Program-made: the position numbers and the translations under genes | Part shown: positions 1,970 to 43,950 of the stretch, in pieces | Position numbering within the stretch: position 1 is the stretch's first letter | Layout: each line of letters begins with the position of its first letter | NCBI GenBank assembly: GCA_964402555.1 | Contig: CAYOCT010000003.1 | Location: 125,146-189,145 of the forward strand | Length of the DNA: 64,000 nt | Direction: 5' to 3' | DNA from: an uncultured Nitrospiraceae bacterium | Lineage (GTDB): Bacteria; Hydrogenedentota; Hydrogenedentia; Hydrogenedentales; SLHB01 | The notes under the pieces: generated by a model | What the model was told of the DNA's origin: nothing | Database searches by the model: none | The model's input: the letters and a program-made list of their open reading frames with translations, nothing else

Positions 1970-3541
1970 TTATCTCCCTGATTGACGTATGAGTTGCCTG
2001 AGCGATTTGATTTCGCTCTCTAACGCGGTGATCCGCGCGTCTTTCTCTTCCAGCCGCTGGGCGAGACCTTGTATAGCCGCGAGCGCGATCCCGGACGCAT
2101 CGACCGTGCAGATACCCGTGTCCGAGTCCCCGAGGCCAAAGGCGGCATAAACGTCCTGGGCCATGGGGCCCATATGGCGAACGCCGCCTTGTTCGGCCTT
2201 GTACTTCCACGTGGTCACGGGGATGCACGCAACCTTGTCAAGGACGTCGCACGGGTTGACGGGAACCATATCCTGTTTGGATTCCCGGCTGCTCAAATCG
2301 GTCCAGGCCCCGGAACCTGCGGACAGCCGGGCGCCCGTGTTGGCGTCCGCGTTCGTGTAGAAATAGAATCCACCACTGGCCCGTGCCATGAAGCGATTGG
2401 AGGCATTGTTGTTGAGGTCGCTGTCGGTGGAATCGGCCCACGTAAACGCACCGATAAAGTTCGACTTCGCGCGCCTGCCAGCGGCAAAGCTGTACGTCCC
2501 TGCGGCCTCATTCGCCGATCCTCCCGGAACCGTCGCGGCGATGCCGGAGACCACATTGCCATATCCGCCGGACACCGTGGACTGCGGCCCAATAGCGTTG
2601 TTGTTATAGCCGCCGCCGACGGTTGCGTAATCCCCAATGGCACTGTTAGTGATGCCCCCGGCGACGGTCGAGTCCAAAGCCGTTGCGATATTCGACTCGC
2701 CGCCCCCCACCGTAGCGTAGTCGTCCGTTGCCTCGTTGTATTGTCCTCCCGCCACGGTCGCCGCGGAACCCGAGGCCTGGTTGATGAGGCCGCCCCCCAC
2801 TGCGGCATGAGCGCCCGAAGCAATGTTGTCCTGCCCTCCGGCAACGGTCCCATACGATGTGGGGGCCACGGAATCGCCGGCACGGTTGTTCGCTCCGCCG
2901 CTAACCGTACAGTAGGAGCCTAGTGCGCGATTCCTGGTCGCTGCCGGGTTGAACCCCGGGCTCCTCGGTCCCCCACCTGCCACAATCGAATACTCGCCTT
3001 GCGCCAGGTTGTATGAGCCGCCGGCCACGGTCGAGTAGTTGCCCTGCGCCACGTTGTACGACCCGCCGCCTACCGTGGATAGGGTTCCCGATGCAGCGTT
3101 GATCAGGCCGCCGGCCACCGTGGACCGGATCCCGCCGGCGGAGTTACGGTAGCCGCCGGCGACGGTCGCTTCCAAGTTACCGGCCGTGTTGCCTGCGCCT
3201 CCGCCTACCACGCCGTAGTGTCCCAATACCTGGTTGATCCAGTTCGCGTACCCGCCGCCCGAGATCGCCGCGCCATAGACGGCAGCGCCCGAAACGTTGC
3301 TCGCGCATCCGCCGATCACATTGGGACTGTTTTGCATCGGTTCGAGCCGCAGCGCTTGGATGGCGTTGACTTTGAACACCAGCGCCTGGTTATCGGTGGT
3401 TCCAACGAAGTTCGCGGCAGGCGTCGTTCCCGCATTGCCGGCGAGAGTCCAGTCGCTGTCATTACCCGCTTGTGCGGAGCATGCGGCTACAACAAGGAGT
3501 GCGCCCATGATCACATGTAGCATGTTCTTTCCGTTCCTCAT
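1970..3541 (-). CDS. secreted Gly-rich repeat protein (Hep_Hag/tail-fibre-like repeats) with a C-terminal peptidase S74 intramolecular-chaperone domain
   Basis: Signal peptide MRNGKNMLHVIMGALLVVAACSAQA. Many TVAGGxxNxAxGxxS repeats. C-terminus SSRESKQDMVPVNPCDVLDKV...WKYK...GVRHMGPMAQDV...TVDASGIALAAIQGLAQRLEEKDARITALESEIKSLRQ matches the chaperone-of-endosialidase (Peptidase_S74) pattern. Start chosen at the internal Met; the ORF extends to 3595. Confidence 0.65.
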   Translation of the reverse strand: MRNGKNMLHVIMGALLVVAACSAQAGNDSDWTLAGNAGTTPAANFVGTTDNQALVFKVNAIQALRLEPMQNSPNVIGGCASNVSGAAVYGAAISGGGYANWINQVLGHYGVVGGGAGNTAGNLEATVAGGYRNSAGGIRSTVAGGLINAASGTLSTVGGGSYNVAQGNYSTVAGGSYNLAQGEYSIVAGGGPRSPGFNPAATRNRALGSYCTVSGGANNRAGDSVAPTSYGTVAGGQDNIASGAHAAVGGGLINQASGSAATVAGGQYNEATDDYATVGGGESNIATALDSTVAGGITNSAIGDYATVGGGYNNNAIGPQSTVSGGYGNVVSGIAATVPGGSANEAAGTYSFAAGRRAKSNFIGAFTWADSTDSDLNNNASNRFMARASGGFYFYTNADANTGARLSAGSGAWTDLSSRESKQDMVPVNPCDVLDKVACIPVTTWKYKAEQGGVRHMGPMAQDVYAAFGLGDSDTGICTVDASGIALAAIQGLAQRLEEKDARITALESEIKSLRQLIRQSGR

Positions 3542-3669
3542 CTCCTGTCCCTCCCTGCCACTCAACTCTAGCCACCTAGAACTCGCACTGCGCATGCGCT
3601 TAACGGACTGGCCTCGGCCCGGTACCCGGCAGGCCTTATCTCCAATCTGACCACGCCATGCAAAGCTCC

Positions 3670-4635
3670 CTATTCTTGAGGTTCATAGAGCGCCAAGAAT
3701 CCTGGGCCGCTTAGTCCGGTGTGCGGACCCCGGATCGTCCCGTCCGGCGCTACCTCCCCGTCGCGAATGGCGATATGTCGGTAGATGTAAATAGCGTTTC
3801 GGGTTGCGTCCGTTATATATCCGGTGCCGTCCGAACCAACGATGAGTCCTCCCAACGTCTCGGCGTTGGGAATGGTCAGGACAGCGTCGGGATCCACGTC
3901 TCCCGAAAGTTGGGAAACATGATGATAGATAGCAACGTCATGGGTGGTATTCGTCGCATAGAGATTGTCATCGGCGTCGATGAAGAAACTCCCCACCCGC
4001 CATGAAGGACCGAGCTTGATCGTGATAACCAAGGGACCGGAGTAAGCATAGATGTCGCCGTCAAGCCGGTCTTTCACGTAAAGTCTGGCGCCGGCGTACA
4101 TGGCGCCAGCAGGAATATCCAACTCCTCGTCGGCTGCGGAGGCCGCTGCAAGAGGAACTGGTCCGTCGAACGTATCACCCGTGGGATCGGCGTACGTCTT
4201 GAAGCGGTTGTCGTCGCTGTCGACAAGGAGCAACCACTCCTCCGTGGGGCCAAAAGCCATACCCCCTATGATATCAGAGAGGTCCTCGAGTTCTGCGACG
4301 CGGTCGGGCGACTGGTTGCCATCGGCCTCGGATGCGTTTTCGAAAACGATGACGGACGTGCCCGCTAGAACGTAGAGCGAACCGTGGGAATCCGTCAGCA
4401 AAGGCCCGGCCCATATGCCTATTTCCGTATCTTCACCTTCCAGCCACGTATCCGGACGCACATCCCCTTTGGCGTCAGCGGGTTCGCGAAACGACACGAT
4501 GCGAGCGATCGAGTCAGAATAGTCATCGGACACGAACAAGACCGTTCCCGTGTTTGCCTTGATACAGCCGGACACGAGCACACACAAGGCTGTAATCCCC
4601 AATACCATTATCGAAGAAGTTGTCTTTTGGGCCAT
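3670..4635 (-). CDS. lipoprotein, probable beta-propeller fold, hypothetical
   Basis: 321-aa ORF with signal peptide and lipobox (MAQKTTSSIMVLGITALCVLVSGC). Repetitive Asp/Gly-rich strand-like segments. Confidence 0.5.
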   Translation of the reverse strand: MAQKTTSSIMVLGITALCVLVSGCIKANTGTVLFVSDDYSDSIARIVSFREPADAKGDVRPDTWLEGEDTEIGIWAGPLLTDSHGSLYVLAGTSVIVFENASEADGNQSPDRVAELEDLSDIIGGMAFGPTEEWLLLVDSDDNRFKTYADPTGDTFDGPVPLAAASAADEELDIPAGAMYAGARLYVKDRLDGDIYAYSGPLVITIKLGPSWRVGSFFIDADDNLYATNTTHDVAIYHHVSQLSGDVDPDAVLTIPNAETLGGLIVGSDGTGYITDATRNAIYIYRHIAIRDGEVAPDGTIRGPHTGLSGPGFLALYEPQE

Positions 4636-5460: not shown

Positions 5461-5490
5461 TTGACATCTACGAAGGTCTTCGTATATAAT
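5461..5490 (+). promoter_or_regulatory. sigma70-type promoter of the blaI-blaR1 operon with an embedded inverted-repeat operator
   Basis: TTGACA at 5461-5466, TATAAT at 5485-5490 (18-bp spacer; TATATA with a 16-bp spacer is also possible). The palindrome TACGAAGgtCTTCGTA at 5469-5484 lies between -35 and -10. RBS AAGGAG at 5505-5510, ATG at 5519. Confidence 0.7.
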
Positions 5491-5518
5491 CCTTCCGCTG
5501 GCATAAGGAGACTACCCG

Positions 5519-5908
5519 ATGCCTAAGAAAGCCCCGCCCAAACCAACCCAGGCCGAACTCGCGATTCTCAATGTCCTTTGGGAGAAAGGCCCGAGTACCG
5601 TGCGGACGGTGTTCGAGGCGCTTCAACAAGCACAGGACGTGGGATACACGACTGTGCTCAAGCTGATGCAGATCATGGCGTCCAAGGGCCTGGTGCGGCG
5701 GGACGAGCGCCAGAAGACGCATGTGTATACGGCGGCGTCCGGGGCGGAGCGCACGCAGCGCCAACTGGTGCGCGACCTGCTCGAACGGGCCTTTGGAGGA
5801 TCGACGGAACGCCTGGTCTTGCACGCCCTGGAGGAAAAGAACGTAACGCCGGAAGAACTGGCCCGCATCCGGAAGATGCTTGACGACTTGGAGGGTGAAC
5901 AGCGATGA
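5519..5908 (+). CDS. blaI: BlaI/MecI/CopY family transcriptional repressor
   Basis: 129-aa winged-helix penicillinase-repressor pattern (ELAILNVLWEKGPSTVRTVFEAL...GYTTVLKLMQIMASKGLVRR). Stop overlaps the start of the downstream M56 peptidase (ATGA at 5905). Confidence 0.85.
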   Translation: MPKKAPPKPTQAELAILNVLWEKGPSTVRTVFEALQQAQDVGYTTVLKLMQIMASKGLVRRDERQKTHVYTAASGAERTQRQLVRDLLERAFGGSTERLVLHALEEKNVTPEELARIRKMLDDLEGEQR

Positions 5909-7914
5909 ACATGCATCTGCTCGTATCGAACGGGGTCGCGCATCGCGTGGGGTGGTGTCTGGTTCACTTTGTGTGGCAAGGGGCGCTGGTAGCGCTTGTG
6001 CTGGCCATCGCGCTCGCGCTGTTGCGCACGCAGTCGGCGCGCCTTCGGTATGCGGTCTGCTTCGGCGCGCTCCTTCTGATGGCGGCAATGCCTGTCCTGA
6101 CGTATGGCGTCCAGACGGCATCGCTCGCGCCGGAAGAAGTCCGGGCCGACAGCCCGGTGGTGAAAGTGGCGCCGATTGCCGCGCCAGCGCAGCCTGCCCG
6201 CGCAGTCGAGACGCCGGTCCAGGCGCATGCCCGTTACCTTGTAGAATCGTCCTTGCCATGGCTGTGCTGGGTATGGCTGTGCGGCGTAGCGGCCTTCGCG
6301 TTACGCAACACCGTAGGCTGGTTCCGCGTGCGCGGTCTCGTCCGCAGAGATACCCGCGCGCTGGGCGAACCTTGGCGGTCTAGGCTGGACGCCTTGTGCG
6401 CATCGCTCAAGATTGAGAGGCAGGTTCGCCTGCTCGAATCCGCGCGCGTGACCATCCCGATGGCGGCCGGCGTCGTAAAGCCCGTGGTGCTCCTGCCGGC
6501 CTCGATTCTGACGCGCCTCGCGCCGGAACAAATCGAAGCCATCCTCGCGCACGAACTCGCCCATATCCGCCGCCACGATTTCCTGGCCAACGTGATTCAG
6601 ACCGTTGTCGAGACATTGCTGTTCTATCACCCGGCGGTCTGGTGGGTCTCGCGCCGGATACGCGAGGAACGCGAACATTGCTGCGACGACGTGGCCGTGC
6701 GCGTCTGCGGAAACAACATGGCGTACGCTCGCGCCCTTGCCTCGCTCGCCGGTCTGGCGATGGTTCCCTCAGGCATGGCCGTCGCCGCAACGAGCGGCCT
6801 GTTTCGGCGCGTGCAACGGATCGTGGGCGCGCCGGAAAAGCGTGCGTTCGGCGCGGGACCGTCGTTCGCCGCTATATCGGCGTTCGCGGTGGTGTTGGGC
6901 ATGGCGCTGGTTCCCCACTTCGGGTGCGCCAGTGGGGACTTGACGGCCAAGGTCGCCAAGATCGACATCGACCACGCGACGCGCGACGACCTGATCGCCG
7001 CGTTCGGGAATCCCGTTCGATATGCGTGGGACGGACAAACCAATCTCGACCCCAACCACCTTCCTTCGAGCTATTGCATCGATTTTCCGCACGGCGTAAA
7101 CGTCTACGTGCCCGACGGCACGATTCTCGAACTGCGTTTCTCGCAGCCCAACTACACGTTTCGCGGGAAGATCCGTGTCGGCTCGACGCTGGACGACGTA
7201 CTCGCTACGATAGGCCAGCCGGACCAGACCGTCGTGGGGCAGCCGCTCGGTTTCTACGACAAGGTCCTGTACAAGGACATCGACGGCAAGCAAGGATATT
7301 GTTATTACGCGCGCGAGGACTGTTCCGTGCGGCTGTGGTTCAACAACTATGAAGTGAGCGCGGTATACGTTACGCGGAGCGATTACACGGACGGCGCGCA
7401 TTCGCCAAGACTGCCCGGAGCGCCGATCAAGGATCTGACACCGGTGGTCGAATCGATCGCCATCGATACCGCGACGCAGGAAGATGTGATCCGCGCCTTC
7501 GGGACCCCGCGGAAATTCTCGATGGGCCAGCGCCGCCTCGATCCGAACAACCTGCCGGACAGCTACACCATCTCGTTCCCCGACGACGTGGATGTGTGGA
7601 TGGTGAATGGGCGTGTTCGATCAATGGGTTTCTGTTCGCCCAACTACACCTTCCGCGGAACGATCCGCGTCGGCTCGACCCTCGACGAAGTCATAGCCGC
7701 GCTGGGCCAGCCATCGGAGGTCGTCACAGGCCAGCCGACCCAAACTCCCGAAGGCCAAGTCGTCAAACGCAAGAGCGGCGTGCTCTACAGAGACCTCAAC
7801 GGGCGTAAGGGAACTGCGTTCTACCGAAGAGACGATGCCCACATCCTGATGAACTTCGAAGATGACAAAGTATGGCGGCTCGCGGTAATGCGAATCGATT
7901 ACGTCGCCCCTTGA
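5905..7914 (+). CDS. blaR1: BlaR1-type M56 family membrane metallopeptidase / signal transducer with a duplicated non-PBP C-terminal sensor domain
   Basis: N-terminal TM helices. HEXXH zinc motif AHELAHIRRHD and downstream FYHPAVWW, typical of peptidase M56. The C-terminal approximately 300 aa are two tandem approximately 140-aa repeats (…PNYTFRGKIRVGSTLDDVLATIGQP… and …PNYTFRGTIRVGSTLDEVIAALGQP…) rather than a transpeptidase-like domain. Confidence 0.8.
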   Translation: MNMHLLVSNGVAHRVGWCLVHFVWQGALVALVLAIALALLRTQSARLRYAVCFGALLLMAAMPVLTYGVQTASLAPEEVRADSPVVKVAPIAAPAQPARAVETPVQAHARYLVESSLPWLCWVWLCGVAAFALRNTVGWFRVRGLVRRDTRALGEPWRSRLDALCASLKIERQVRLLESARVTIPMAAGVVKPVVLLPASILTRLAPEQIEAILAHELAHIRRHDFLANVIQTVVETLLFYHPAVWWVSRRIREEREHCCDDVAVRVCGNNMAYARALASLAGLAMVPSGMAVAATSGLFRRVQRIVGAPEKRAFGAGPSFAAISAFAVVLGMALVPHFGCASGDLTAKVAKIDIDHATRDDLIAAFGNPVRYAWDGQTNLDPNHLPSSYCIDFPHGVNVYVPDGTILELRFSQPNYTFRGKIRVGSTLDDVLATIGQPDQTVVGQPLGFYDKVLYKDIDGKQGYCYYAREDCSVRLWFNNYEVSAVYVTRSDYTDGAHSPRLPGAPIKDLTPVVESIAIDTATQEDVIRAFGTPRKFSMGQRRLDPNNLPDSYTISFPDDVDVWMVNGRVRSMGFCSPNYTFRGTIRVGSTLDEVIAALGQPSEVVTGQPTQTPEGQVVKRKSGVLYRDLNGRKGTAFYRRDDAHILMNFEDDKVWRLAVMRIDYVAP

Positions 7915-8155: not shown

Positions 8156-8794
8156 GTGAAGTTATCCCACATTACGCATGACGCCGTCGTGTCCGCGATT
8201 GCCGAGTTCGACAAACTCGGACAAGATCGATTCTTGAAACGATACGGTTTCAAGAAGGCTATACGTTACTATTTGATATACGACAACAAATCCTACGATT
8301 CAAAGGCCATTCTCGGAGTGGCTCGCAAGTTCGTCGACAGAAGAGATGGCCCCCTTGGCGCTGGCGACTTCAGCGGCGGCAAATCAACTACAGACCAGCT
8401 CCGCAAGCTGGGATTAGAGATCGCGGAACGATGGGTTGACGCGTCGGCTATGACTACGGAGAAACGACGATACAAGGACTTTGGCAAGGCTCCGAATGAC
8501 AATGTCAACGAACTTCAAACCTTTGCGAGAAGAGTGCGACGCGGGCAGCAGAGATTCCGCGACAACTTGATGAGGGCATACCAATGTTCCTGTGTTGTAA
8601 CCGGGCCCGGCCCGGGCGAAGTACTCGAAGCCGTTCACATTGAACCGCACGCGGAGTCCGGGATTAACAAACTGGGCAATGGTCTGCTTATGCGAGCGGA
8701 CATTCATGTATTATTCGATGCGCATCTTTTGGGAATCGACCCGCGTTCCATGGAGATTGTGGTGAACGGGAAACTGAAAGACACCTTGTACTAG
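8156..8794 (+). CDS. HNH endonuclease (HNH_2 / McrA-like, restriction-type) with an uncharacterised N-terminal domain
   Basis: GTG start with GGGGGAG RBS. C-terminus CSCVVTGPGPGEVLEAVHIEPHAESGINKLGNGLLMRADIHVLFDAHLLGIDP has the HNH C..C…H…N…H pattern. Sits in a lower-GC stretch. Confidence 0.7.
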   Translation: MKLSHITHDAVVSAIAEFDKLGQDRFLKRYGFKKAIRYYLIYDNKSYDSKAILGVARKFVDRRDGPLGAGDFSGGKSTTDQLRKLGLEIAERWVDASAMTTEKRRYKDFGKAPNDNVNELQTFARRVRRGQQRFRDNLMRAYQCSCVVTGPGPGEVLEAVHIEPHAESGINKLGNGLLMRADIHVLFDAHLLGIDPRSMEIVVNGKLKDTLY

Positions 8795-8996: not shown

Positions 8997-10316
8997 ATGT
9001 CGCTACTCGATGCACTCAAGTCCATCGTTTTGGATGCCCAGGAGTTGCCTTGGGACACGGGCACGCCCCGTCTGCTCTCCATGGCGCCGGTCCGCGGCAA
9101 GGCGGCTGTATGTATCGGGGTGCGCCGCAGCGGCAAGTCGACGTATCTCCTTCAAGTCATGCAGGGTCTCGTGGATCGTGGAGTTTCCCGAAAGAACATT
9201 CTCTACCTGAACTTCTTCGACGACCGTCTGCACGTGTTGCGCCGTGAGAATCTCGGTCTTATCGCGGAAGCCTACTTCTCGATGTATCCAGAGAAGAAGA
9301 ACACGGAAACGGTATACTGTTTCTTCGACGAGGTCCAGGCGGCCCCGGGCTGGGAACCGTTCGTTGACCGCCTGATGCGGACCGAACGATGCGCCGTGTA
9401 CCTGACGGGTTCGTCGGCGCGCATGCTCTCGAAAGAAATCGCCACGCAGATGCGTGGCCGGGCGCTTTCTTGGGAACTGTTTCCGTTCTCGTTCCGGGAG
9501 TTTCTCGATTTCAAAGGCGTCGAGCGGACGGGCTCATTGTCGACCAAGAGACGCCTCCTAGTTCAAAAGGCCTTCGAGGACTACTGGGAAACCGGCGGGT
9601 TTCCCGAAGTGGCCGGCCTGGACGCGCCGTTGCGCATCAAGATTCACCAGGAGTACTTTCTGACCATCCTGTTCCGCGACCTGGTTGAGCGATACGACAT
9701 CGCCCATCCGAGAGCCGTGAACGACTTAGCGCATTGGCTGATCGACAACGTGGGTTCGTTCTACTCGGTGAACCGGCTCACCGAATACCTCAAGACGCTG
9801 GGCCACAAAGTCCCCAAGTCGGCCGTCGCCGATTATCTCACGTGGTTCGAAGACGCGTACTTCCTCTTTACGGTGCGGATCTTCGACGCGTCGCTCGCGC
9901 GAAGCAATACGAATCCGAAGAAGATCTACTGCATCGATCACGCCATGGTCGCCTCCGCATCTTCTGGGATACTGGCGAACTCGGGACATCTGTTGGAGAA
10001 CTTGGTTTTCGTGGCGCTCAGGCGTCTCTACCCGAACGTCTATTACTACAAGACACGATCGGGGCGTGAAGTCGATTTTGTCGTTTCGCCGCGGGGCCGA
10101 TCCCGAAAGTTGATTCAAGTCTGCGAGTCGCTGGCGGCGCCACAGACCCGTAAGCGGGAAGTGGCGGCCTTGGCGGAAGCCATGGCCGAGTTGAATGTCC
10201 GCGAAGCCGTCATCGTAACGCGCAACGATAGCGGCAGCATCGAAGAGGAAAGCGGGACGATTCGCGTGGTCCCGGCGTGGCAGTTCTTGGCCGACATGCC
10301 GGACTCGATCGTGTAA
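8997..10316 (+). CDS. AAA+ ATPase with C-terminal DUF4143 (predicted restriction-endonuclease-like fold)
   Basis: Walker A GVRRSGKST, Walker B YCFFDEVQ. C-terminal region with conserved E/D/K pattern typical of the AAA_14–DUF4143 family. Confidence 0.7.
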   Translation: MSLLDALKSIVLDAQELPWDTGTPRLLSMAPVRGKAAVCIGVRRSGKSTYLLQVMQGLVDRGVSRKNILYLNFFDDRLHVLRRENLGLIAEAYFSMYPEKKNTETVYCFFDEVQAAPGWEPFVDRLMRTERCAVYLTGSSARMLSKEIATQMRGRALSWELFPFSFREFLDFKGVERTGSLSTKRRLLVQKAFEDYWETGGFPEVAGLDAPLRIKIHQEYFLTILFRDLVERYDIAHPRAVNDLAHWLIDNVGSFYSVNRLTEYLKTLGHKVPKSAVADYLTWFEDAYFLFTVRIFDASLARSNTNPKKIYCIDHAMVASASSGILANSGHLLENLVFVALRRLYPNVYYYKTRSGREVDFVVSPRGRSRKLIQVCESLAAPQTRKREVAALAEAMAELNVREAVIVTRNDSGSIEEESGTIRVVPAWQFLADMPDSIV

Positions 10317-11949: not shown

Positions 11950-13635
11950 ATGGAAGTCGAGACGTTAGTTGAAGCGACGCGGACAGGGGATACCCGCGCC
12001 TTTGGCCGCATCGTTGCCGCGTATCAGGGGTTGGTGTGTTCGGTCGCGTACAGTCTGACCGGCGACCTGCATCGAAGCGAAGATATCGCGCAAGAGACGT
12101 TTGTCGCGGCATGGCAGCGCATCCGCGATTTGCGCGACCCGCGCAAGCTGCCCGCGTGGTTATGCGGTATTGCGCGCAATCGCGCGCGATCCGCGGTCCG
12201 CGATGCTCAACACGACCCGTTGCGCGGCGCTGCCTCGATTGACGACCGGTCGGAAGCGGGCGCATCCGTCGAACCGGAGACGATGGAGGAGCCGGAGCGG
12301 CTCGAATTGGTCTGGCGGACCTTGGAGGAGATTCCCGAGGAATACCGCGAGCCACTGGTCCTATTCTATCGCGAAGGCCAATCGGTCCGCGACGTATCGG
12401 AAGCGCTCGAACTCTCCGAAGACTGCGTCAAGCAGCGCTTGTCGCGCGGCCGGAAGATGATGAAAGAACGCGTGGCGCGCCTGGTCGAGGAAACGCTCGA
12501 ACACACCCGGCCCGGCGAGGCGTTCACGGCAAGCGTCATGGCCGCGCTGCCTCCGCTGGCCATGCCTGCAAGTATCGCCGCGGCGGTCTCAGGTAAATCC
12601 GTGTGCGCGCTCAAGGCGGCTGCGGCCCTGGCGTGGCTTGCCGGTCCGATCATTGGCGTCACGGGCGGGTTCTTCGGCATGTGGGCCGGCATCCGCAACA
12701 GCCCGACGGTCCGCCTACGCCGCATGATGCTCCAGTGCGCATGCGTGACCTACGCCTTCATCTGGCTGTTCTTCGGTTATGAAGGGTTGTGCGGTGTATT
12801 CTTCTGGCGAGAGCCGCGAACGATGTACGCCCTGTGCGGCCTGGGCTGGGCCGTCTACATTCCCGCGTTGTGCGCGTTGATCTGGCACTCGAACCGGTGG
12901 TGGCGCCGCGTCGCTATCGAGGACGCCGGCGAACTCCCCGCGCCCGCAACGCCGCTCGAAGAATCGTCGCTCGCGCGTTCGCGCGTGCAACGCTGGTTCG
13001 CCGTGTCCCTGGCGCTTGCCGTTGCCGGATCGGTGGGCACGGTGATTTGGATCCACTCGATGCCATGGACGCGCGTTCTATGGCCGGCAGCGTTGCTTGG
13101 TGCCGCGCTCGCGCACTATGCCTTCTTCACCCTCTTTCGCAAGGGCATGGCGATCGCGCACGACGAGGCCGCGGTACGCGAGAACCCTTCGCCCCACACG
13201 CTGGACGAAGCCCTTCATCCCGCCCGCAAAGGCTCTCCGCCGAGCGAACGCGCCCGGTTCCTCAACGACCTTGCTGCGTTGGCTGGGAGCCTCTTCGGAC
13301 CGATGGCCCCTGCCTTCAGCGCCGCCCTCGGCGCGGGGCGTTATAGGTTCTGCGCAATCACAGGCGCCCTGACCCTGTCCGCATTCCTCTTCGGAATCTT
13401 CCTGCGAAGAACCCCAAACGGGCGTCGCTGGGGGTTCTTCGGGATCTACATGGCCATGGGCGTCATCTGCGGCGTAAGCACGGCCATGGCCGGTCCGTTC
13501 ATGGACGCGCCCGGTATCAGCCCGATGGCTGTCCGCCTTATCGAAGGCGCGGTCCCGCTTGCGCTCTACTGGGGCCTCGCGCTGGCCCTATGCTTCATCC
13601 TCGAACGCCCGGTTTCGCCCGCTGAGGAGAAGTAG
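11950..13635 (+). CDS. ECF (sigma-70 family) sigma factor fused to a C-terminal polytopic membrane domain
   Basis: N-terminal sigma2 region (DIAQETFVAAWQRIRDLRDPRKLPAWLCGIARNRA) and sigma4 region (EIPEEYREPLVLFYREGQSVRDVSEALELSEDCVKQRLSRGRKMMK). Residues from about 200 to the end contain at least 6 hydrophobic helices. Confidence 0.8.
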   Translation: MEVETLVEATRTGDTRAFGRIVAAYQGLVCSVAYSLTGDLHRSEDIAQETFVAAWQRIRDLRDPRKLPAWLCGIARNRARSAVRDAQHDPLRGAASIDDRSEAGASVEPETMEEPERLELVWRTLEEIPEEYREPLVLFYREGQSVRDVSEALELSEDCVKQRLSRGRKMMKERVARLVEETLEHTRPGEAFTASVMAALPPLAMPASIAAAVSGKSVCALKAAAALAWLAGPIIGVTGGFFGMWAGIRNSPTVRLRRMMLQCACVTYAFIWLFFGYEGLCGVFFWREPRTMYALCGLGWAVYIPALCALIWHSNRWWRRVAIEDAGELPAPATPLEESSLARSRVQRWFAVSLALAVAGSVGTVIWIHSMPWTRVLWPAALLGAALAHYAFFTLFRKGMAIAHDEAAVRENPSPHTLDEALHPARKGSPPSERARFLNDLAALAGSLFGPMAPAFSAALGAGRYRFCAITGALTLSAFLFGIFLRRTPNGRRWGFFGIYMAMGVICGVSTAMAGPFMDAPGISPMAVRLIEGAVPLALYWGLALALCFILERPVSPAEEK

Positions 13636-13780: not shown

Positions 13781-16336
13781 GTGGAAGCCCGCCGCGGGAA
13801 GAGGGGTGCGACGCATATGGCCGGTACGGAAGCGAGTAACGACGCGAACCGTTTAAGCATGGAAGACTTGAACGCCGGAGGGCGGTTCAAGGTCAAGAAG
13901 TATCTCAAGAGCGGCGGCATGGGCGACGTGTATCTCGCCGAGGACGACCTGCACCGCCGCGTGGTCCTCAAGACGATCCGCTCGGATAAGAACATGGACA
14001 CCGAGTTCCAGAAGCGGATCGAGCGCGAATGCCAGTTGCACGCCAAGGTCGGCACGCATCCGCACATCGTCACGCTGTACGACCGCACGACCATCCGCGA
14101 TCAGCAGGTCCTCATCATGGAATACGTCGACGGCGAGACCCTGCAGGAGCGGCTCGAATCGTACAAGAACCAGGGCAAGATCATCCCGTTGCACGACGCC
14201 CTGCTCATCGCGGCGCAATGCCTGGACGCGCTGTCGCGCATTCACGCGCACAAGATCGTGCATCGCGATATCAAGCCGGCGAACCTGATGCTGACGGTGG
14301 ACGAGGACAGCCAAATCTGCGCGAAGCTGATGGACTTCGGGATCGCGCGGCGCACGGAAGAGGAAACCCTGGCCACGTTCGCCACGGGCGACGGCAGCCG
14401 CGGTCCCGGCACGCCCGCCTATATGGCGCCCGAGCAGATCGATTCGCGCAAGTTCGGCCAGGTCTCCGAGGCAACCGACATCTATGCCGTCGGCGTCATG
14501 CTGTACGAGATGATCTCCGGCGCGACGCCGTTCACGGGAACGCTGACCGACGTCATGATCGGACACCTGACGCGCCAAGTGCCGCCCCTTCAACCGGCGG
14601 CGGGCGCGTTCGTGCCGGCCGAAGTCACCGACGTCATCAACATCGCGTTGAGCAAGAACCCCAAGAACCGATTCCCGAGCGCGAAAGCGTTTCGCGACGA
14701 ACTCAAGCAATTGCTCCAGGGCCAGGTGTCGCTCGATTCCGTAACGACGCCCGTGCAAGAGTTGAACTCGTTTCAGTTGGACGTCGACAACGCCATGACG
14801 CTGCCAACCTCGGGCCAGGCGCAAGCGCAGACCACGCCCGCGCCCGGACGCCTGGTTGCGCAGGCCCCGGCCGCTCCCGCGCAGCCGGTGGCGGAACGCA
14901 CGATGCTCTCCGGAAGCACGACGAACTGCGCGCCGCCGGCCCGCCGCAAAGGCGTGCTTGTCCCCGCGATCGCAGCCGTCGTGCTGCTCGGGTTCTGCGC
15001 GGTCTCCGGCGTGCTCATCTTCGATCGCCTGCGGCAGAAGCCCGAACCGGCGCCGGCCGCGCCGGCCACGCAGCCTGCGCCCGCCCCCGCGGCATCCGCG
15101 GAGCCCCCGGCGAAGGCGCCTGAAGCGCTATCGGGCGCGGCGCAGATCGAGGCCAGTTCGAAAGCCGAAGCCACGCTGAAAAATGCCAGCACCATGGAAG
15201 CCTCGCTGACACAAGAAGCGCGCGAACTCGCAGCGAAGGATGTCCAGGACGGCCACGACAGCATGGACCGCGGGCATAAGGCCTACGATTCTAAGGACTT
15301 CGTCAAGGCGCAGGAGGAGTACGACGCGGCCCTTGCCCATTTCAAGACGGCGTCCGAAATCCTGGCCAAGCGCGACGAAGCCAGCGTAGCGAAGACAAGC
15401 GCCGAAGCCGCGAAAGCGGCGCTGCCGCCCAATGCCGCGGAGGCAGCATCGAAAGAAACCGCCGACGCCGACGAGGCGTTCAAGAACGCAAACGACGCGT
15501 GGGATAAGCAGGATTTCGGCGCCGCGAAAGAGAAGTACGTGTCCGCCGAGGAGCAGTACGAGGCGGTGGCAGGCTTGGCCAACGGCTACACGGATGCGAA
15601 GGCCGCCAAGACGGAAGCGGAGTACGCCCACGAGAGAGTAGCGGGCAAGACTACGGATGCGGATATTCTCAAGTCGGCGAACGCGAATCTGGATCAGGGC
15701 GCCGAGGCCTGGGAGGCAAAGAACTACGACGCGTCGAAGAAGTTCTATAGCTTGGCCAAGAACCAGTATGACGATGCCGTCAAAGCGGGTGAAGCCCAGG
15801 CCGCCATGGCAGCCAAAGCGTCCGAAGCAGCCGAAAGCGTGAAGAAGTTGCAGGCGTCGGCCCAGTCCGCCAAGAACGCGATCCCGAACGAAGCCAAGGG
15901 CCTCGACGAGGTCAAAGCGGGCGACGCGGCCTTCGCCAAGGCCGAGGAAGCCATGGCCAGGCAAGACCTCCAAGGCGCCGGACAGCAGTATCAGACCGCG
16001 CTAAGCAAGTACGGCGCGGCGAGAAAGAAGATCGAGGCGGCGCGGGCGGCGCAACCGCCTGCCCCTGCCCCTGCCCCTGCAACGGCTCAAGCTGCCGCCC
16101 CGGCTCCATCGACCCAGGGAGGCAGCGCTTCGGAAGCGTTCTCAGCAGCCACGCAGAACCAGCCGCCTCCGCCCCCGCCACCTCAGCCCGCTTCGCCTCC
16201 GCCATCGCAATCGTCGGCTGCTCAGACGGTCACTTCGTCGCAGCCGGCGCCGGCGCCTCCGCCGCCATCCCAGCCCTCGCGCCCATCCGGTGGGAGTTCC
16301 AGAAGTGGCGGTCTTCGTAACAGGGCGGTGGACTAA
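13781..16336 (+). CDS. Ser/Thr protein kinase, membrane-anchored, with an extracytoplasmic Ala/Lys-rich repeat region and a Pro-rich tail
   Basis: Hanks motifs HRDIKPANLML, DFGIAR, GTPAYMAPEQ. TM helix VLVPAIAAVVLLGFCAVSGVLIF. Four approximately 45-aa repeats with a conserved (K/D)xxDFxxAxExYxxA core. C-terminal PAPAPAP/PPPPPQP low complexity. Confidence 0.85.
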   Translation: MEARRGKRGATHMAGTEASNDANRLSMEDLNAGGRFKVKKYLKSGGMGDVYLAEDDLHRRVVLKTIRSDKNMDTEFQKRIERECQLHAKVGTHPHIVTLYDRTTIRDQQVLIMEYVDGETLQERLESYKNQGKIIPLHDALLIAAQCLDALSRIHAHKIVHRDIKPANLMLTVDEDSQICAKLMDFGIARRTEEETLATFATGDGSRGPGTPAYMAPEQIDSRKFGQVSEATDIYAVGVMLYEMISGATPFTGTLTDVMIGHLTRQVPPLQPAAGAFVPAEVTDVINIALSKNPKNRFPSAKAFRDELKQLLQGQVSLDSVTTPVQELNSFQLDVDNAMTLPTSGQAQAQTTPAPGRLVAQAPAAPAQPVAERTMLSGSTTNCAPPARRKGVLVPAIAAVVLLGFCAVSGVLIFDRLRQKPEPAPAAPATQPAPAPAASAEPPAKAPEALSGAAQIEASSKAEATLKNASTMEASLTQEARELAAKDVQDGHDSMDRGHKAYDSKDFVKAQEEYDAALAHFKTASEILAKRDEASVAKTSAEAAKAALPPNAAEAASKETADADEAFKNANDAWDKQDFGAAKEKYVSAEEQYEAVAGLANGYTDAKAAKTEAEYAHERVAGKTTDADILKSANANLDQGAEAWEAKNYDASKKFYSLAKNQYDDAVKAGEAQAAMAAKASEAAESVKKLQASAQSAKNAIPNEAKGLDEVKAGDAAFAKAEEAMARQDLQGAGQQYQTALSKYGAARKKIEAARAAQPPAPAPAPATAQAAAPAPSTQGGSASEAFSAATQNQPPPPPPPQPASPPPSQSSAAQTVTSSQPAPAPPPPSQPSRPSGGSSRSGGLRNRAVD

Positions 16337-16363: not shown

Positions 16364-17296
16364 TTATGCGTGCGGATGCGCGTCGCGGTAGACCTGCTTG
16401 AGCCGATCGATGCTGACGTGGGTGTAGATCTGCGTGCTCGACAGGCTTTCATGCCCGAGCAATTCCTGGACGACACGGAGATCGGCGCCGGCATCGAGCA
16501 TGTGCGTCGCGAAGGTGTGGCGCAACGTGTGGGGCGATATTTCGTGGCGTCCTGGCAACGCCTCGCGCGCATACCTTTCGATCACGCGCTGGACGCTGCG
16601 CGTCGTCAGTGGGCCGCCGCGCCAGTTCACAAACAGCCGGTCATGCGAGGGACGGCCGAATTCCAGCCGCACGCTTAGATAGGCGCGAATTGCCGCCACG
16701 GCGTATTGCCCGAGATGCGCGATGCGTTCCTTCTTGCGTTTGCCCATGACGGCCATCGCCATGCCCGCCAGGTCCAAATGGCCCAGCCGCAGCCCGCAGA
16801 GTTCGCTCGCCCGGATCCCGCTCGAATACAACGTTTCGATAATCGCGCGGTCCCGGACGCCCAGCGGTTCCGAGACATCCGGCGCTTCGATCAGCGCCGT
16901 CACCTCGGGGATGCTCAACACGTCGGGCAGGTTGCGATCGAGCTTCGGCGACTTGACGGTCTGCGCGGGACTGTCTTCGAGTTCGCCCATGCGGACGAAG
17001 AACTTGTACGCGGCGCGGACCGCGGCCAGCTTGCGCGCCGAGGTGCGGGACGTCCCGCCGGTGGTCTGGACGTGCGCAAGAAACGCGCGGATGTCGTTGC
17101 GCGTGGCGCGCTGCAGCGCCCCGAACGAGGCCGGGGGCCGTTCCTCGTCCGGCGCGCGCTCGAAGGCCTTCGGGCCGTGGAGGGCGTAATCGCAGAACTG
17201 ATCCAGGTCGTTAAGATACGCGCGGACCGTGTGCGCGGAAAACCCGCGCTCGACTTCAAGGTACTTGACGAACCGCTCGATTTCGGCAGGATACAT
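16364..17296 (-). CDS. xerC: tyrosine recombinase XerC/XerD family
   Basis: N-terminal core-binding domain (FVKYLEVERGFSAHTVRAYLNDL). C-terminal catalytic region HTLRHTFATHMLDAGADLRVVQELLGHESLSSTQIYTHV (R..H..R..Y). An alternative upstream start exists at 17308. Confidence 0.85.
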   Translation of the reverse strand: MYPAEIERFVKYLEVERGFSAHTVRAYLNDLDQFCDYALHGPKAFERAPDEERPPASFGALQRATRNDIRAFLAHVQTTGGTSRTSARKLAAVRAAYKFFVRMGELEDSPAQTVKSPKLDRNLPDVLSIPEVTALIEAPDVSEPLGVRDRAIIETLYSSGIRASELCGLRLGHLDLAGMAMAVMGKRKKERIAHLGQYAVAAIRAYLSVRLEFGRPSHDRLFVNWRGGPLTTRSVQRVIERYAREALPGRHEISPHTLRHTFATHMLDAGADLRVVQELLGHESLSSTQIYTHVSIDRLKQVYRDAHPHA

Positions 17297-17363
17297 AGGC
17301 GCGGGCAAGCCGTTCCGTCCACTGCGTCCACAACGTCCACTTCGTCCACCGTCGCAGGGGCAG

Positions 17364-31930: not shown

Positions 31931-32423
31931 ACTTATGCGATAAAGATTTCTTTTCAGGATAGGCAATGCGCCGCGCGATATGGGGTCGGGGGCGTGGCGC
32001 GGGAGATGGAAGTTCGTGGGCCGCGCCGACGGAGATAGCAGACATCCTTTACATCGATCGGCATGCCCTCTCTCCGTCTTGGTCGCCACCTGGATAACGC
32101 CCGGTTACCCTTGACCGGCTTGGGATAGCGGGTTAGACTATTTCTACGGTAAAGTCTGCATGGCAAAATGGGCTTAGCCGCGCGAGCTTTGGGTGCGGCT
32201 CGGATTGTGGGAGACGGCGCAGCGGCCTTCCGGCGCGCCGGAGGACAGGTGAATAGAGGAATAGGGCCACCCATGCAGACATACATGGCGTGCGCTCCGG
32301 CAAACATGAATCGTCTGCTATGCCTCGGAATGCGCGGAGGCCGGGGTCTAGAGTGATATACGTGCAGGGAGGCCCGTGTTCCGCGGGCGCCCGAGGGCAG
32401 GTTGTTGCCGAGGAGGAAAGGTC

Positions 32424-35400
32424 ATGCGTACGTCATCAGTGTTCCGTGGGGCGATCCTTGTCATTCTAGCGTCGATCGGGGGCATCGGATGCCCCTGGAT
32501 AGCGCCCAAAGCACAATTCGCGGCGTACCCGCAAAGCGGTATGGCCCCGCTCGAGGTCCAATTCACGGACCAGTCCGTTCCAGGCGTCGTTCCAATCTCG
32601 CAGTGGGCATGGGACTTTGGCGATGGCGGAACGAGCCGCGCTCGCAATCCCAAGCACACGTACTCCGCTTCGGGATCGTACACGGTCTCGCTTACAGTCA
32701 AGGGTTTCCTGGCCCAGAGCACGGCGGCCATACAGGACCTCATTCAGGTTTCGGGCGAGGGCGAAGGGGAAGGCGAGGGTGAGGGCGAGGGCGAGCAGCC
32801 TGTGTATTTTGTGGTCGGCGATCCGCTGAGCATCGCCCATGGCGCCTACGTGCTGCCGTTGACCAACGCGGACGATATCGCCCACGCGCGGGACGTTATT
32901 GCGGACCCGGCCAACACGGACATGCACATCGTGGTCGCGCGCATCGATCGCGGGGGAACCGAGGGAGAGTATACCAACTGCGATCCATACCATCCCGGAA
33001 ACGTCTGGTCGTGGCGCGTGACGGAATTCGTCGGGTTTGCCGACAACACCATCGAGATCCTGGATGGTTGGCCGCAATATGTCGAGGACAATCTGGATGC
33101 GTGGATGCAGGCTACCGGCGGCGAGATCGGATTCTGGAACTGCCGAGTCTTGTACGAATTGACGGACGGATGCCCCGGCGCCGAAGGCGAAGGCGAAGGC
33201 GAAGGCGAAGGCGAGGGCGAAGGCGAGGGTGAAGGTGAAGGCGAAGGCGAAGGCGAGGGTGAAGGCGAAGGTGAAGGCGAAGGCGAAGGCGAAGGCGAAG
33301 GCGAAGGTGAAGGTGAAGGCGAGGGTGAAGGTGAGGGTGAGGGCGAAGGTGAAGGTGAAGGTGAAGGTGAAGGCGAGGGCGAAGGTGAAGGTGAAGGTGA
33401 AGGTGAGGGTGAGGGTGAAGGTGAGGGCGAAGGCGAAGGCGAGTTGTTCTTGATCGGCGTCTTCCCTGCGGCGGGTTCCGGGGCCGGCGGTACACTTGTC
33501 TATATCCCCGGTGGCGGATTTGTTAGCGAGGGAACCACGCGCGTGCTGTTCGGCGACGCCGACGCGACCAACGTGCTTGTGGGTTCCTCCGATGGTGTCG
33601 ATTATGTGCAGTGTGTGACCCCGCCGCACGCGCACGGTACGGTGGATGTCACCGTCATCAATCCCGATGGCGCAAGCGCCTATCTGCCCGCCGCCTTTAC
33701 GTATCAGGACGCGCCTGCGGTGGCGTTCATCGAGCCGAATGCGGGGTCGTCGTTAGGCGGGCAGCATGTGACCGTCCGAGGCTCGGGTTTCATGAGTTCC
33801 GGCGCAACCAGGGTTACGTTCGGTGGCGCTGACGCAACGGAAGTTACCGTCATCGACGACGGTTACAATCCGCCGTTTGTCACGTGTGTCGCGCCACTGC
33901 ACGCGCCAGGCGTCGTCGACGTCACGGTCATCAATCCTGACGGGTTGCGCGGGACGCTCGCGAGGCGCTTCACGTATTTTTCACCGGTTTACATTCAACG
34001 CGATGGCCGCTATGTGACGAATGCGTCGGTCGGATACGAGGGCGGGCCGTTCTATCCCGACAAGGTGCCCTATGGCCTAAGGAATAGCCACACGGCAGCG
34101 CTAATGTACGACCTGAAGGTCACGAATGACATCCTGCAGATCGAGTTCCCGATGGGGCTTCCGCCCGTGCCCGGAATAACCGGTACCGTTGCCAGGGATA
34201 GCTATGGCACAACCTTCTTGGCGGATCTCGCGGACGATGTCGTCAACCGGCTCACTCCCGGAACATACCCGACCGGACTCCAGTTAACGAACGTCACGTT
34301 CCAGCAATTTGCTCAAGCCGAAGACATCTACCTGGACGTCCTGGATCGGAGCGAGCCGGGGCTTGAGGTCACTCCGAGGGAGGATTTCTATGCGGCGGGA
34401 CCTGTCGGCGGGCCATTCGAGCCCCTGGCGAAGATCTACCGATTCTACAATCCGGACCCGACACCGGTTGCGGTCAGCGCGTTCCTCGTGAACACGGACC
34501 GGTATCTCTCGCTTGACCCGTCGCGGTACGTGCAGGGCGTCGAAACAACCCTGGATGCGTTCCAGGCCATCGACGTTGGCGTCTATGTCGATCAGACGCT
34601 GACCGGCAGGCTCGATGCAACCGAACTTACCAACCAGCTCCGGTTCTACAACGCAACGCTGGGTAAGGTGGCCGCCGCCCGGATGATCTATGTGACCGTG
34701 TCTGAAGACGACTTCAGCGGCCTGTCGTTCGTCGACGTGCTTAACAACATAGGACAGAACACGGCATTGCTGGGCATCGCTCCGGAACCCGGTCTCCCCG
34801 AAGATGCCGACTACAATGGCCCAGGATGGTCTCCTGGGGATGCCCTGTCCGTCCATGTCAGCGGCAATGGAATGCCCGACGCAACCACGGAACTCAAGTT
34901 GATCGAGAATGTCCTCCATGATCGGTCCTTCTCCCTGCCGAACGGACTGACCCACGCGCGCGTGGCCAGCGCATGGCATGCCAATCGGCAGCGTCTTGCG
35001 CAGGACTTGGCCCCTGTGTGGGACATGTTCGAGGTCTTGCTGCCGGGGTTCCAGGATTTCCTCACCGGTATGATGATCATTGGCGACGGAGAGATGGATC
35101 TTTCAGACCCAAGCGTCGTGCGTTGGACCGGTTCGGCGGGCTTCGTTCAGGGGCTCCTGCATTCGTTCCGAGAAGTCTTCGGTATCGAAGACATCGACCT
35201 CAGCCATTACATTCGCATGCCGGAGTACTTCGCGTTCTATGGCGACGCGGACGGCGACGGCTGCAAGAACTACTTCGAGTACGTACGGAACTCGTGGGAC
35301 TTTCCCTACGATGTCATCGCGCTCGATCCCGCGTTTAACAGTGAGAACCTCTGCATGATCGATGTTGTTCCCTCGTCTAGGGCAGGAGGCACTTTCATCG

Positions 35401-41400: not shown

Positions 41401-41942
41401 CGAACGTGCATCCCGATGCGTGCTCCGGTGAAGGCGAAGGAGAGGGCGAGGGTGAAGGTGAGCTCCTTGCAGTGTGCGACTACTGGCCTCTGGCCAAAGG
41501 CAACTACTGGCGGTGGCACACCGGTATGATTGACGCGGATGGCGGCGAGATTGCCGTGACCGATTCGAGCGTTGTCAACGGATTCAAGACGTGGGAAGTG
41601 AAGCTCTACGCTGACACAATCGCCGGGTTGTTGCCTCAACTGGACGTCTTTGTCGTCTTCGTCGACGGCTGGCTCTACGGCACGGATGTGCGCGCCGACC
41701 TCGACGGCTTGCCCGTCGTCGGTGGCGGGATGCAGCGCATCTGCCCGCAGACCATGCAATCCGGCCAAACGTTCACGTCGGATTACTTCGGCTGGCCAGT
41801 GACGGTCAGCGGCGGCGCATCTACGGTCCTGGTTTCGGTCAGTGGGTTCGGACCACTGTTCATCTTGTCCCAAGGCCAGGGACCGACAGCCGGTATACTC
41901 GGCGCTTTCGATCCTCCGGTTATCGTCGGCGGGTGCGAGTAG
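32424..41942 (+). CDS. giant (3172 aa) modular cell-surface lipoprotein: PKD domain, two IPT/TIG domains, repeated Ca-binding (DADGDG) modules, (Gly-Glu)n linkers
   Basis: AGGAGG RBS then ATG at 32424 ([23 protein letters not shown], lipobox). PKD-like segment (WAWDFGDGG…HTY…GSYTVSLTV). An 88-codon pure (GE)n run at ~33178-33443 and about 8 shorter GE linkers. IPT-like domains ([17 protein letters not shown]…[10 protein letters not shown]). Six copies of an approximately 215-aa module ending …[21 protein letters not shown]…NALNPxVHPxxC. Three copies of an approximately 160-aa module ([16 protein letters not shown]…). Two copies of an approximately 90-aa module. The ORF track starts at an upstream in-frame Met at 32376. 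Confidence 0.85.
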
Positions 41943-42801: not shown

Positions 42802-43950
42802 TTACTCCGCTTGGACCGTTCGTTTAAGCCATCCGTCAGGATTGCAGACATGGACTTCCAGATTGGAGTAGGTCTTGACGTAGCCGTCGACGCTCAGCGG
42901 GCCGACTACGTAGTTGCTGCCGTTCGGGTAGTATGAACGGAACACAGCCAATCCCGCTGGATCGAACTGGCGGGGATCCCATTTGCACTCGATGACGTCC
43001 ACGTGGTCACGGTTGCGTGCGATGACGAAGTCCACCTCGTGCCCGGAGGCGTCGCGCCAGTATTGAACTTGCCATTCATGGCCGTGCGCCAGCAGGTACT
43101 CCAGCACGAGATGTTCCCAGAGCGTGCCGTAATCCGAAGGGCGCAACGGATCCCAACCTCGGCTGAAACTGACGAATCCTGTATCGAACGCATAGGCCTT
43201 GGGCATCTTCACGATCTCGCCTTGCCCGCCGCCGTGGAATGGACGCACGACCGTAAGGGCATGGGTTGCCTCCAGCGCGCGGACATGGCTGTCGACGGTC
43301 TGGCGGCTGATACCAAGCGCGCGCGCCACGCCGGAAACCGCCAAAAGACCCCCGCTCTGTTTCATCATATACTCAAACAGCGAACTGAACTTGTCCGGAT
43401 CGCGAAAGGCGAAGAGCCGCTGCATGTCCCGGGCGTAGAACGAGTCCATCCATTCCCGGTAGAAGCTGGGGGATTTCTCTTCCGCCAGCAACGCATCGGG
43501 AAGCCCCCCGTGATAGAGCCGTTTCAGCAGGGATTGGTCGAATGCGCCAAGCTCGTCCCAGAGTACCGGCGTCAGACGGACGAGCCGTTTCCGCCCCGCC
43601 AACGTATCCCGGAACTTTCGCGATGCGGCCAGCGTCGAAGAACCGGTCGCCAGAATCCTCAAGTGCGGGAAGACGTCGGCTCCTATCTTCAACAGCCGGC
43701 TCGGGTCCGGAAGCTGGTGAATCTCATCGAACACCACGATGGGCCGTTCGACGTTTCGAAAGAACAGCTCCGGGTCGGCGGTCATCTCCGCGACCACGGG
43801 CAGGTCGCAGTTGACATAATGGACGCGCTCATCGCCAAGGCTTCGCGCTAGCGTCGTCTTTCCAACGCGCCGCACCCCTGCGAGCCACACGATCGGCGCG
43901 TTCGCCCACGCGCTGTGAATTCGATCAATCCAGAATGGCCGTTCAATCAT
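42802..43950 (-). CDS. AAA+ ATPase with C-terminal DUF4143 (second, divergent paralog)
   Basis: Walker A GVRRVGKTT, Walker B VVFDEIHQ. Same architecture as the 8997 gene. Confidence 0.7.
   Translation of the reverse strand: MIERPFWIDRIHSAWANAPIVWLAGVRRVGKTTLARSLGDERVHYVNCDLPVVAEMTADPELFFRNVERPIVVFDEIHQLPDPSRLLKIGADVFPHLRILATGSSTLAASRKFRDTLAGRKRLVRLTPVLWDELGAFDQSLLKRLYHGGLPDALLAEEKSPSFYREWMDSFYARDMQRLFAFRDPDKFSSLFEYMMKQSGGLLAVSGVARALGISRQTVDSHVRALEATHALTVVRPFHGGGQGEIVKMPKAYAFDTGFVSFSRGWDPLRPSDYGTLWEHLVLEYLLAHGHEWQVQYWRDASGHEVDFVIARNRDHVDVIECKWDPRQFDPAGLAVFRSYYPNGSNYVVGPLSVDGYVKTYSNLEVHVCNPDGWLKRTVQAE

Follow-up and report, generated by a model that had tools for sequence, protein, structure and literature searches.

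The stretch analysed here is a 64-kb window (64,000 nt) of contig CAYOCT010000003.1 from an uncultured bacterium labelled Nitrospiraceae and placed by GTDB in the Hydrogenedentota. It carries a two-gene operon encoding a BlaI-like repressor and a membrane zinc protease of the M56 (BlaR1) family. The operon is preceded by a promoter with a −35 hexamer TTGACA (5461–5466, + strand) and a −10 hexamer TATAAT (5485–5490, +), which in a consensus scan matched at 12 of 12 positions with an 18-nt spacer. The spacer is filled by a palindrome, TACGAAGgtCTTCGTA (also TACGAAGGTCTTCGTA; 5469–5484), which has the form TACGAAG-gt-CTTCGTA, with two 7-nt arms around 2 nt and no mismatch, and whose final base abuts the −10 hexamer. 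It is a putative binding site for a BlaI dimer. A Shine-Dalgarno-like AAGGAG (5505–5510, +), read from the sequence and represented by AGGAG or GGAGG in orthologues, lies 8 nt 5′ of the ATG of blaI (5519–5908, +; 129 aa). The stop codon of blaI and the start codon of the M56 gene (5905–7914, +; 669 aa in the open reading frame listing) share ATGA, a 4-nt overlap, and the two genes are translationally coupled. A first-pass annotation of this DNA had described a blaI–blaR1-type module in which a TTGACA/TATAAT promoter encloses the palindrome; both genes were found where it placed them, with Pfam matches to both families, and the promoter anatomy was confirmed.

The product of the first gene matched the Pfam family Penicillinase_R (PF03965) over residues 10–122 of 129 with an E-value of 1.8e-27 (96.4 bits, cut-off 22.6). 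It aligns end to end with the structures 2G9W, 1SD4 and 1OKR. The closest solved relative was BlaI of M. tuberculosis (2G9W, 1.2e-11), followed by BlaI and MecI of S. aureus. By homology the small protein is a full-length BlaI/MecI/CopY repressor, with a winged helix and C-terminal dimerization helices. Its scores with the BlaI/MecI exception models of NCBIfam were far under the cut-offs.

The second protein matched Peptidase_M56 (PF05569) over residues 27–303 (5983–6813, +; 6.2e-35, 121 bits, cut-off 31), a region comprising transmembrane helices and a cytoplasmic gluzincin domain. The HEXXH motif reported in the first-pass annotation is present as HELAH at residues 216–220 and is followed by an EXXXD motif (E257, D261), so that the zinc-site motifs span 6550–6690 (+). 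In the alignment with S. aureus BlaR1, residues H216/E217/H220/E257/D261 coincide with H201/E202/H205/E242/D246, and 52 M56 homologues show hardly any variation at these positions. Hydropathy analysis and an AlphaFold model placed transmembrane helices at residues ~9–39, 45–73 and 104–148, followed by the protease domain and a last transmembrane helix at ~317–339 (6853–6921, +). The six top Foldseek matches of the full-length AlphaFold2 model (predicted local distance difference test, pLDDT, 88.6) in the PDB were all cryo-EM structures of S. aureus BlaR1 (8EXQ/8EXS/8EXT/8EXP/8EXR; probability 1.00, E 9e-8 to 4e-4). Hydropathy, model and Foldseek together gave a multi-pass membrane topology and a BlaR1-like fold. 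By analogy, the C-terminus beyond the last transmembrane helix would be located outside the cytoplasm.

This C-terminal part consists of two tandem copies of a domain of about 150 aa. Repeat 1 covers residues 345–498 (6937–7398, +) and was recognized by the domain hidden Markov model with an i-E of 3.4e-67; repeat 2 covers residues 508–669 (7426–7911, +). The copies are 45% identical (E 4e-47) and both contain PNYTFRGxIRVGSTLD, as the annotation had noted. Repeat 1 carries the family signature VLYKDIDGxxGxCYY in intact, canonical form (VLYKDIDGKQGYCYY), repeat 2 has a degenerate version (VLYRDLNGRKGTAFY), and both orthologues keep the signature in both repeats. At threshold, Pfam and NCBIfam assigned neither repeat to a family, and the transpeptidase family PF00905 was not matched; below the Pfam gathering thresholds there were hits to BamE (20.4 bits against 23.2) and DUF2845 (13.1 against 21). 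A model of repeat 2, built from an 18-sequence alignment, reached a pLDDT of 93.4. In a fold search the repeat model resembled YjgB/DUF4309, YfeY, BLIP and BamE, and no penicillin-binding protein (PBP) was matched. The model shows tandem alpha-beta(4) units structurally like those of solved BamE/DUF4309/BLIP-like members, and as modeled each repeat is a tandem of two BamE-like α/β units with a BLIP-type architecture. The claim that the sensor is not a PBP domain held, both by the missing transpeptidase match and by the BLIP/BamE-like fold. The annotation had named a PBP or transpeptidase fold of the repeats as grounds for giving up this claim; the structure search for it was negative.

A profile search against 1.84 billion representatives recovered 556 proteins with this domain at E ≤ 1e-3. 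The relatives that carry a source name are few and mostly come from metagenome-assembled genomes of Planctomycetota. In 43 of 182 members examined it is attached to an M56 domain, C-terminal to the last transmembrane helix; in these fusions it usually begins at residue ~345–375 and occurs in one to three copies. Other partners found among 104 relatives were Peptidase_S8 (13), HAAS (10), extracytoplasmic function (ECF) sigma factors (8), PDZ (4) and Ser/Thr kinases (2); three of the 104 reached E ≤ 1e-4 for BamE, and three did so for DUF4309. The shuffling of the domain among transmembrane signaling outputs suggests that it is an extracytoplasmic sensor module, and its BLIP/BamE-like fold, as modeled, would favor a protein or envelope ligand over a small molecule. 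The ~150-aa BLIP-like family is absent from Pfam, and we found no description of it in the searchable literature.

The same fold could also be taken to mean that the periplasmic repeats anchor the protein in the envelope or serve as a scaffold, with a protease that is constitutive or gated by the general state of the envelope. The envelope lipoproteins BamE, OsmE and YfeY are among the closest folds, the repeat domain also occurs beside PDZ and S8 protease domains that are typical of envelope quality control, and no ligand-binding signature was identified in the repeats. Furthermore, the inducer of the related CenIR system was not found despite screening (PMC13492132). Against this explanation stand the repeated fusion of the domain to the signaling outputs M56, ECF sigma factor, HAAS and Ser/Thr kinase and the strongly conserved, surface-type motif VLYKDIDGxxGxCYY, which together suggest specific recognition. 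We consider a scaffold role unlikely, albeit worth keeping in mind.

Comparative analysis tied the palindrome to the repressor gene. The close orthologues of the module fall into two groups, L001–L003 (BlaI 79% identical, M56 protein of 660 aa) and L004–L005 (BlaI 76%, M56 protein of 665 aa), both with the same two-repeat M56 architecture. Their M56 proteins are 53–55% identical to that of the window overall and 52–57% in the C-terminal regions. Upstream of blaI the sequences can be aligned only from −35 through −10, as cTTGAC(A/G)tcTACGAAG(g/a)tCTTCGTATAT(A/G)AT, and the flanks diverge. The hexamers are TTGACG and TATGAT in L001 and TTGACA and TATAAT in L004; the dyad arms are unchanged and variation in the dyad is confined to the central 2 nt. 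A scan of species-representative genomes for BlaI yielded 62 loci at 43–66% identity, from Acidobacteriota, Planctomycetota, Verrucomicrobiota, Bacteroidota, Myxococcota, Poribacteria, Omnitrophota and other phyla, and an M56 gene lies directly 3′ of blaI in nearly all related loci (about 60). The family core of the dyad is TACGAA-N4-TTCGTA. Counted when matching this core at 10 or more of 12 positions and lying at most 250 nt upstream of blaI, it was present in 53 of 63 loci. Its density upstream of blaI was 6.1 sites/kb as compared to 0.022/kb elsewhere in the same loci, a difference of about 280-fold.

The converse search gave a consistent picture. A metagenome scan for TTGAC-N3-TACGAA-N4-TTCGTA returned at least 121 sites, and among the matches listed a BlaI homologue was located within 200 nt 3′ of the promoter-dyad in 101 of 121 cases (83%). 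The recognition-helix segment of BlaI, GYTT(V/A)LKxxQxM, hardly varies among the 120 closest homologues, consistent with the use of one shared operator. Autoregulation by BlaI accounts for the dyad far better than the alternatives, with binding predicted from these comparisons; the autoregulatory role proposed in the annotation is in this way supported by the orthologue footprint and by both surveys. TACGAA-N4-TTCGTA is the consensus shared by a large clade of environmental BlaI proteins. In 64 kb some four palindromes with 7-nt arms would be expected by chance per spacer length, by our own estimate, so the palindrome alone is not rare and its significance comes from its position and comparative conservation. 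An RNA structure as the cause of the palindrome was ruled out, since there was no Rfam match, transcription is predicted to start 3′ of the element and the arms keep their sequence instead of covarying; these properties mark the dyad as a protein-binding site. We found no description of the cross-phylum promoter-operator cassette in the searchable literature, and a query for the dyad together with BlaI gave unrelated primers only.

The commonest layout in the related loci L006–L067 has two tandem dyads, with the second one in the spacer as in the window. The 3′ arm of the upstream dyad then fuses into the −35 hexamer (TTCGTTGACA; TACGAAnnnnTTCGTTGACA), as seen in L013 (~3352–3395) and L027 (~3453–3490). 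The window and the orthologues L001 and L004 have the spacer dyad only, the upstream dyad having been lost or never present.

The first-pass annotation needs correcting on two points, the first being its description of the dyad as a textbook BlaI/MecI-type operator. The textbook BlaI/MecI/CopY operator of Firmicutes is TACA-NN-TGTA (PMC7253601), from which TACGAA-N4-TTCGTA differs in sequence and in half-site spacing. The TACA-NN-TGTA core is missing from the window dyad, where TAC and GTA are 10 nt apart rather than 4. A variant dyad, TACGACacatGTCGTA (TACGAC-N4-GTCGTA), occurs at 5533–5548 of locus L188, in a 7.5-Mb contig, upstream of a more distant blaI that is paired with a 1010-aa M56 protein; its 6-4-6 geometry is kept and the inner arm bases differ. 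We take the mycobacterial BlaI operator to be a dyad of this TACGAC...GTCGTA type.

Not every occurrence of the promoter-dyad is accompanied by blaI, and this is relevant to the question whether another regulator binds the site, whether it is merely a conserved promoter feature, or whether the BlaI-like protein acts as a CopY-like metal repressor independently of the protease. Among the metagenomic matches listed, 17% had no detectable blaI downstream, and some of these were in AT-rich, phage-like contigs beside XRE-type genes; CopY, for its part, belongs to the same Pfam family as the window repressor. These points are opposed by the tight and specific association of the dyad with blaI across phyla, by the translational coupling of blaI to an M56 gene with an intact active site and by the occurrence of about 96% of M56 genes near a blaI (PMC13492132). 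The 129-aa translation of the repressor contains no cysteine, so that the CxC metal site of CopY is absent, and its score with the CopY/TcrY model TIGR02698 was 49 bits against a cut-off of 122. CopY-type metal sensing was ruled out on these two grounds, and we hold this whole set of explanations to be highly improbable. In the AT-rich contigs L112, L120 and L127, the genes behind TTGACAATTACGAAnnnnTTCGTATAAT promoters, in some cases with another dyad further upstream, encode XRE-type helix-turn-helix and phage GP88-like proteins and not BlaI. Another regulator may act through a similar operator in phage or mobile DNA of the Firmicutes type.

Other genes behind the promoter-dyad in the metagenomic set include three for MacB_PCD/FtsX permeases (L076:1096–3717(−), L086:430–3105(+) and L186:4685–7222(−)). 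Three further ones, L132:442–1218(−), L139:3057–5276(+) and L143:1693–4608(+), encode a metallo-β-lactamase-fold protein (HSHRD...GGCLVK; L132), a DUF5916 protein and a hybrid histidine kinase. These genes are candidates for the regulons of other lineages and serve as leads, not as evidence for the organism studied here.

With the M56 and BlaI family matches, and with the same promoter-dyad in front of a metallo-β-lactamase-fold gene on one metagenomic contig (L132) of another lineage, one might think of a canonical β-lactam-sensing BlaR1/BlaI resistance switch. The window protein, however, has no transpeptidase or PBP domain in Pfam or NCBIfam, and it scored 90.7 bits against a cut-off of 400 with the NCBIfam model NF000326 (blaR1_generic), matching model positions 10–255 with its N-terminal half only. 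The fold search led to BLIP/BamE-like proteins and not to a PBP, and no β-lactamase or PBP gene adjoins the operon in the window or in the orthologous loci. Canonical β-lactam sensing was ruled out because the PBP domain, the N-F cleavage site, the TACA/TGTA operator and a linked resistance gene are all absent; such a switch is hardly credible here.

The features described above are probably those of a stand-alone, self-repressed proteolytic signaling module of the non-canonical BlaI/BlaR (M56) type. A dimer of the BlaI-like protein on the spacer dyad TACGAAG-N2-CTTCGTA would occlude RNA polymerase at a very strong consensus sigma-70 promoter and keep expression of the coupled blaI-M56 operon low. 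The M56 protein would be a four-helix membrane zinc protease with its HELAH/E257/D261 site toward the cytoplasm, and the two copies of the ~150-aa domain that follow the last transmembrane helix would be periplasmic. These repeats are expected to recognize an extracytoplasmic cue that is not a β-lactam and most likely is a protein or an envelope component. The cue would activate the cytoplasmic protease, which would cleave BlaI and derepress the operon together with any other dyad-bearing promoters in the genome. For cue sensing, BlaI cleavage and derepression we rely on the paradigm of S. aureus and B. licheniformis and on CenIR-like systems (PMC13492132).

Several observations weigh against this interpretation. 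The scissile pair N101-F102 of S. aureus BlaI is opposite H102-A103 in the window protein, where the 120 closest homologues have Q, R or H and then an invariant Ala-Leu; the cleavage site is not conserved and cleavage of BlaI is an assumption. The TM-scores of the M56 model to BlaR1 were low (0.23–0.59), which can be attributed to the match being restricted to the N-terminal half and to an uncertain domain arrangement in the model (predicted TM-score 0.62). The BLIP/BamE-like fold is a generic scaffold that identifies no ligand. In repeat 2 (residues 626–640, window 7780–7830) the nearly invariant Cys of the family and an Asp are lost, the signature reading LNG...TAFY. On the output side, relaxed searches of the 64-kb window for the dyad (TACGAAGNNCTTCGTA, at most 3 mismatches; TACGAANNNNTTCGTA, at most 2) otherwise gave chance-level matches, no second dyad was found within ±3.5 kb of 60 related loci, and the three orthologous loci do not share a conserved gene neighborhood.

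The hunt for further copies of the dyad that was called for in the annotation was run on the 64-kb window. The promoter copy was the only perfect one, and by these searches the window contains no regulon members; the uniqueness of the dyad is established for this stretch. A paralogue search of the window found no second blaI, M56 or sensor-repeat gene.

A more far-reaching variant of the signaling module can be envisaged, in which the duplicated BLIP-like domain is a protein receptor and many paralogous M56 sensors with differing outside domains act on one operator set, as a cross-wired repressor network with multiple inputs. The receptor would bind periplasmic or incoming proteins such as a hydrolase or a toxin and translate this binding into proteolysis of BlaI, by analogy with the binding of partners by BLIP and by fold-related immunity proteins of type VI secretion systems. 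A 4.5-kb metagenomic contig (L104) carries two promoter-dyad cassettes ~3.4 kb apart, at 542–565(−) and 3973–3996(+), each facing a short open reading frame in a blaI-like position. This arrangement suggests that paralogous repressors in one genome share an operator. Since the operator is also common to BlaI homologues across phyla, paralogous sensors could feed a common operator set. We regard this network as a rather improbable extension.

The neighbors of the module in the window are a lipoprotein-like open reading frame, an HNH nuclease, an AAA_14/DUF4143 ATPase and a leucine-rich repeat protein. The nuclease gene (HNH_2, 8156–8794, +) is located directly 3′ of the module and its product has an N-terminus like that of type IV methyl-directed restriction enzymes. 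The ATPase gene (8997–10316, +) matches the PADLOC candidate system PDC-S01 (1.7e-107), and a second AAA_14/DUF4143 gene is found at 42802–43950 (−). A defense-system reading of the blaI-M56 pair itself was ruled out, as neither protein had a meaningful PADLOC match. Further downstream there are genes for an ECF-type sigma factor (regions 2 and 4) with a C-terminal extension of ~390 aa (11950–13635, +) and for an 851-aa Ser/Thr kinase (13781–16336, +), followed by a tyrosine recombinase/integrase gene (16364–17308, −). The BLIP-like sensor domain was not found in this sigma factor or kinase. Upstream, a gene at 1970–3595 (−) encodes a 541-aa glycine-rich repeat protein with a C-terminal Peptidase_S74 domain (endosialidase chaperone), as in tail-fiber-like surface proteins. 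The largest open reading frame of the window encodes 3188 aa (32376–41942, +).

Soil and aquatic bacteria carry non-canonical BlaI/BlaR pairs in great abundance, and for almost none of them is a signal or regulon known. More than 7,000 clusters match the M56 protein of the window and more than 4,800 match its BlaI. The module offers two handles on such systems. The first is a sharp cross-phylum operator consensus, TACGAA-N4-TTCGTA in or beside the −35/−10 region, with which complete genomes can be scanned for regulons. The second is a compact and confidently modeled sensor family that recurs on M56 proteins, ECF sigma factors, HAAS proteins and kinases and is a candidate for ligand discovery. 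What seems to be new is the cross-phylum operator cassette and the ~150-aa BLIP-like sensor family, a useful but incremental addition. It leaves the view of how the BlaI/BlaR family works unchanged and has no evident tie to antibiotic resistance.

The second correction to the annotation is that, within the BlaR family, a sensor that is not a PBP is common rather than unusual. Published work puts the share of BlaR homologues with a PBP domain below 10%. Kurtz et al. (2026; PMC13492132) distinguished 254 M56 architectures, of which an M56 domain with an unannotated C-terminus is the commonest, and reported that a transpeptidase domain is present in only about 6% of the M56 'BlaR' proteins and that 96% of M56 genes adjoin blaI. 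Among 51 M56 partners from our related loci the C-termini included CarboxypepD_reg, GWxTD, Big_1, HEAT, POTRA, PDZ and other domains, and a PBP domain in none (0/51). Because PBP-less sensors are common among BlaR proteins, the window module is an ordinary representative of the family whose sensor domain is undescribed, and it falls within the non-canonical majority of BlaIR systems. Such non-canonical systems are functional regulators, as illustrated by CenIR (PMC13492132) and PvmSR (bioRxiv 10.64898/2026.08.03.742534).

With BlaI-BlaR1 and MecI-MecR1 of S. aureus and B. licheniformis the module shares a winged-helix dimeric repressor, an M56 membrane zinc protease with the HEXXH + EXXXD site and the transmembrane/protease fold, an extracytoplasmic domain after the last transmembrane helix and an operator overlapping the promoter, which here is predicted to give autoregulation. 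It differs in having two BLIP/BamE-like modules instead of a penicillin-binding transpeptidase domain as the sensor, in its gene order of blaI followed by blaR, in the operator (TACGAA-N4-TTCGTA instead of TACA-NN-TGTA), in the H-A pair that replaces N-F and in the absence of a linked β-lactamase or PBP2a gene.

CenIR of C. difficile, PvmSR of P. aeruginosa and the mycobacterial BlaIR (Rv1846c/Rv1845c) likewise combine BlaI with an M56 protein without a β-lactam-binding domain; they have roles outside β-lactam resistance and their inducers are unidentified. Their regulons are partly known, whereas none is known for the window module. The extracytoplasmic parts of these proteins are short, disordered or absent, while the window protein has a duplicated domain of ~325 aa that is predicted to be well folded. 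Finally, compared to the BLIP-like/BamE/DUF4309 (YjgB)/YfeY group, the repeats have a sequence identity of 5–23% and their own signature, VLYKDIDGxxGxCYY. The members of that group are free lipoproteins or inhibitors, whereas the domain described here is the output-coupled part of membrane signaling proteins.

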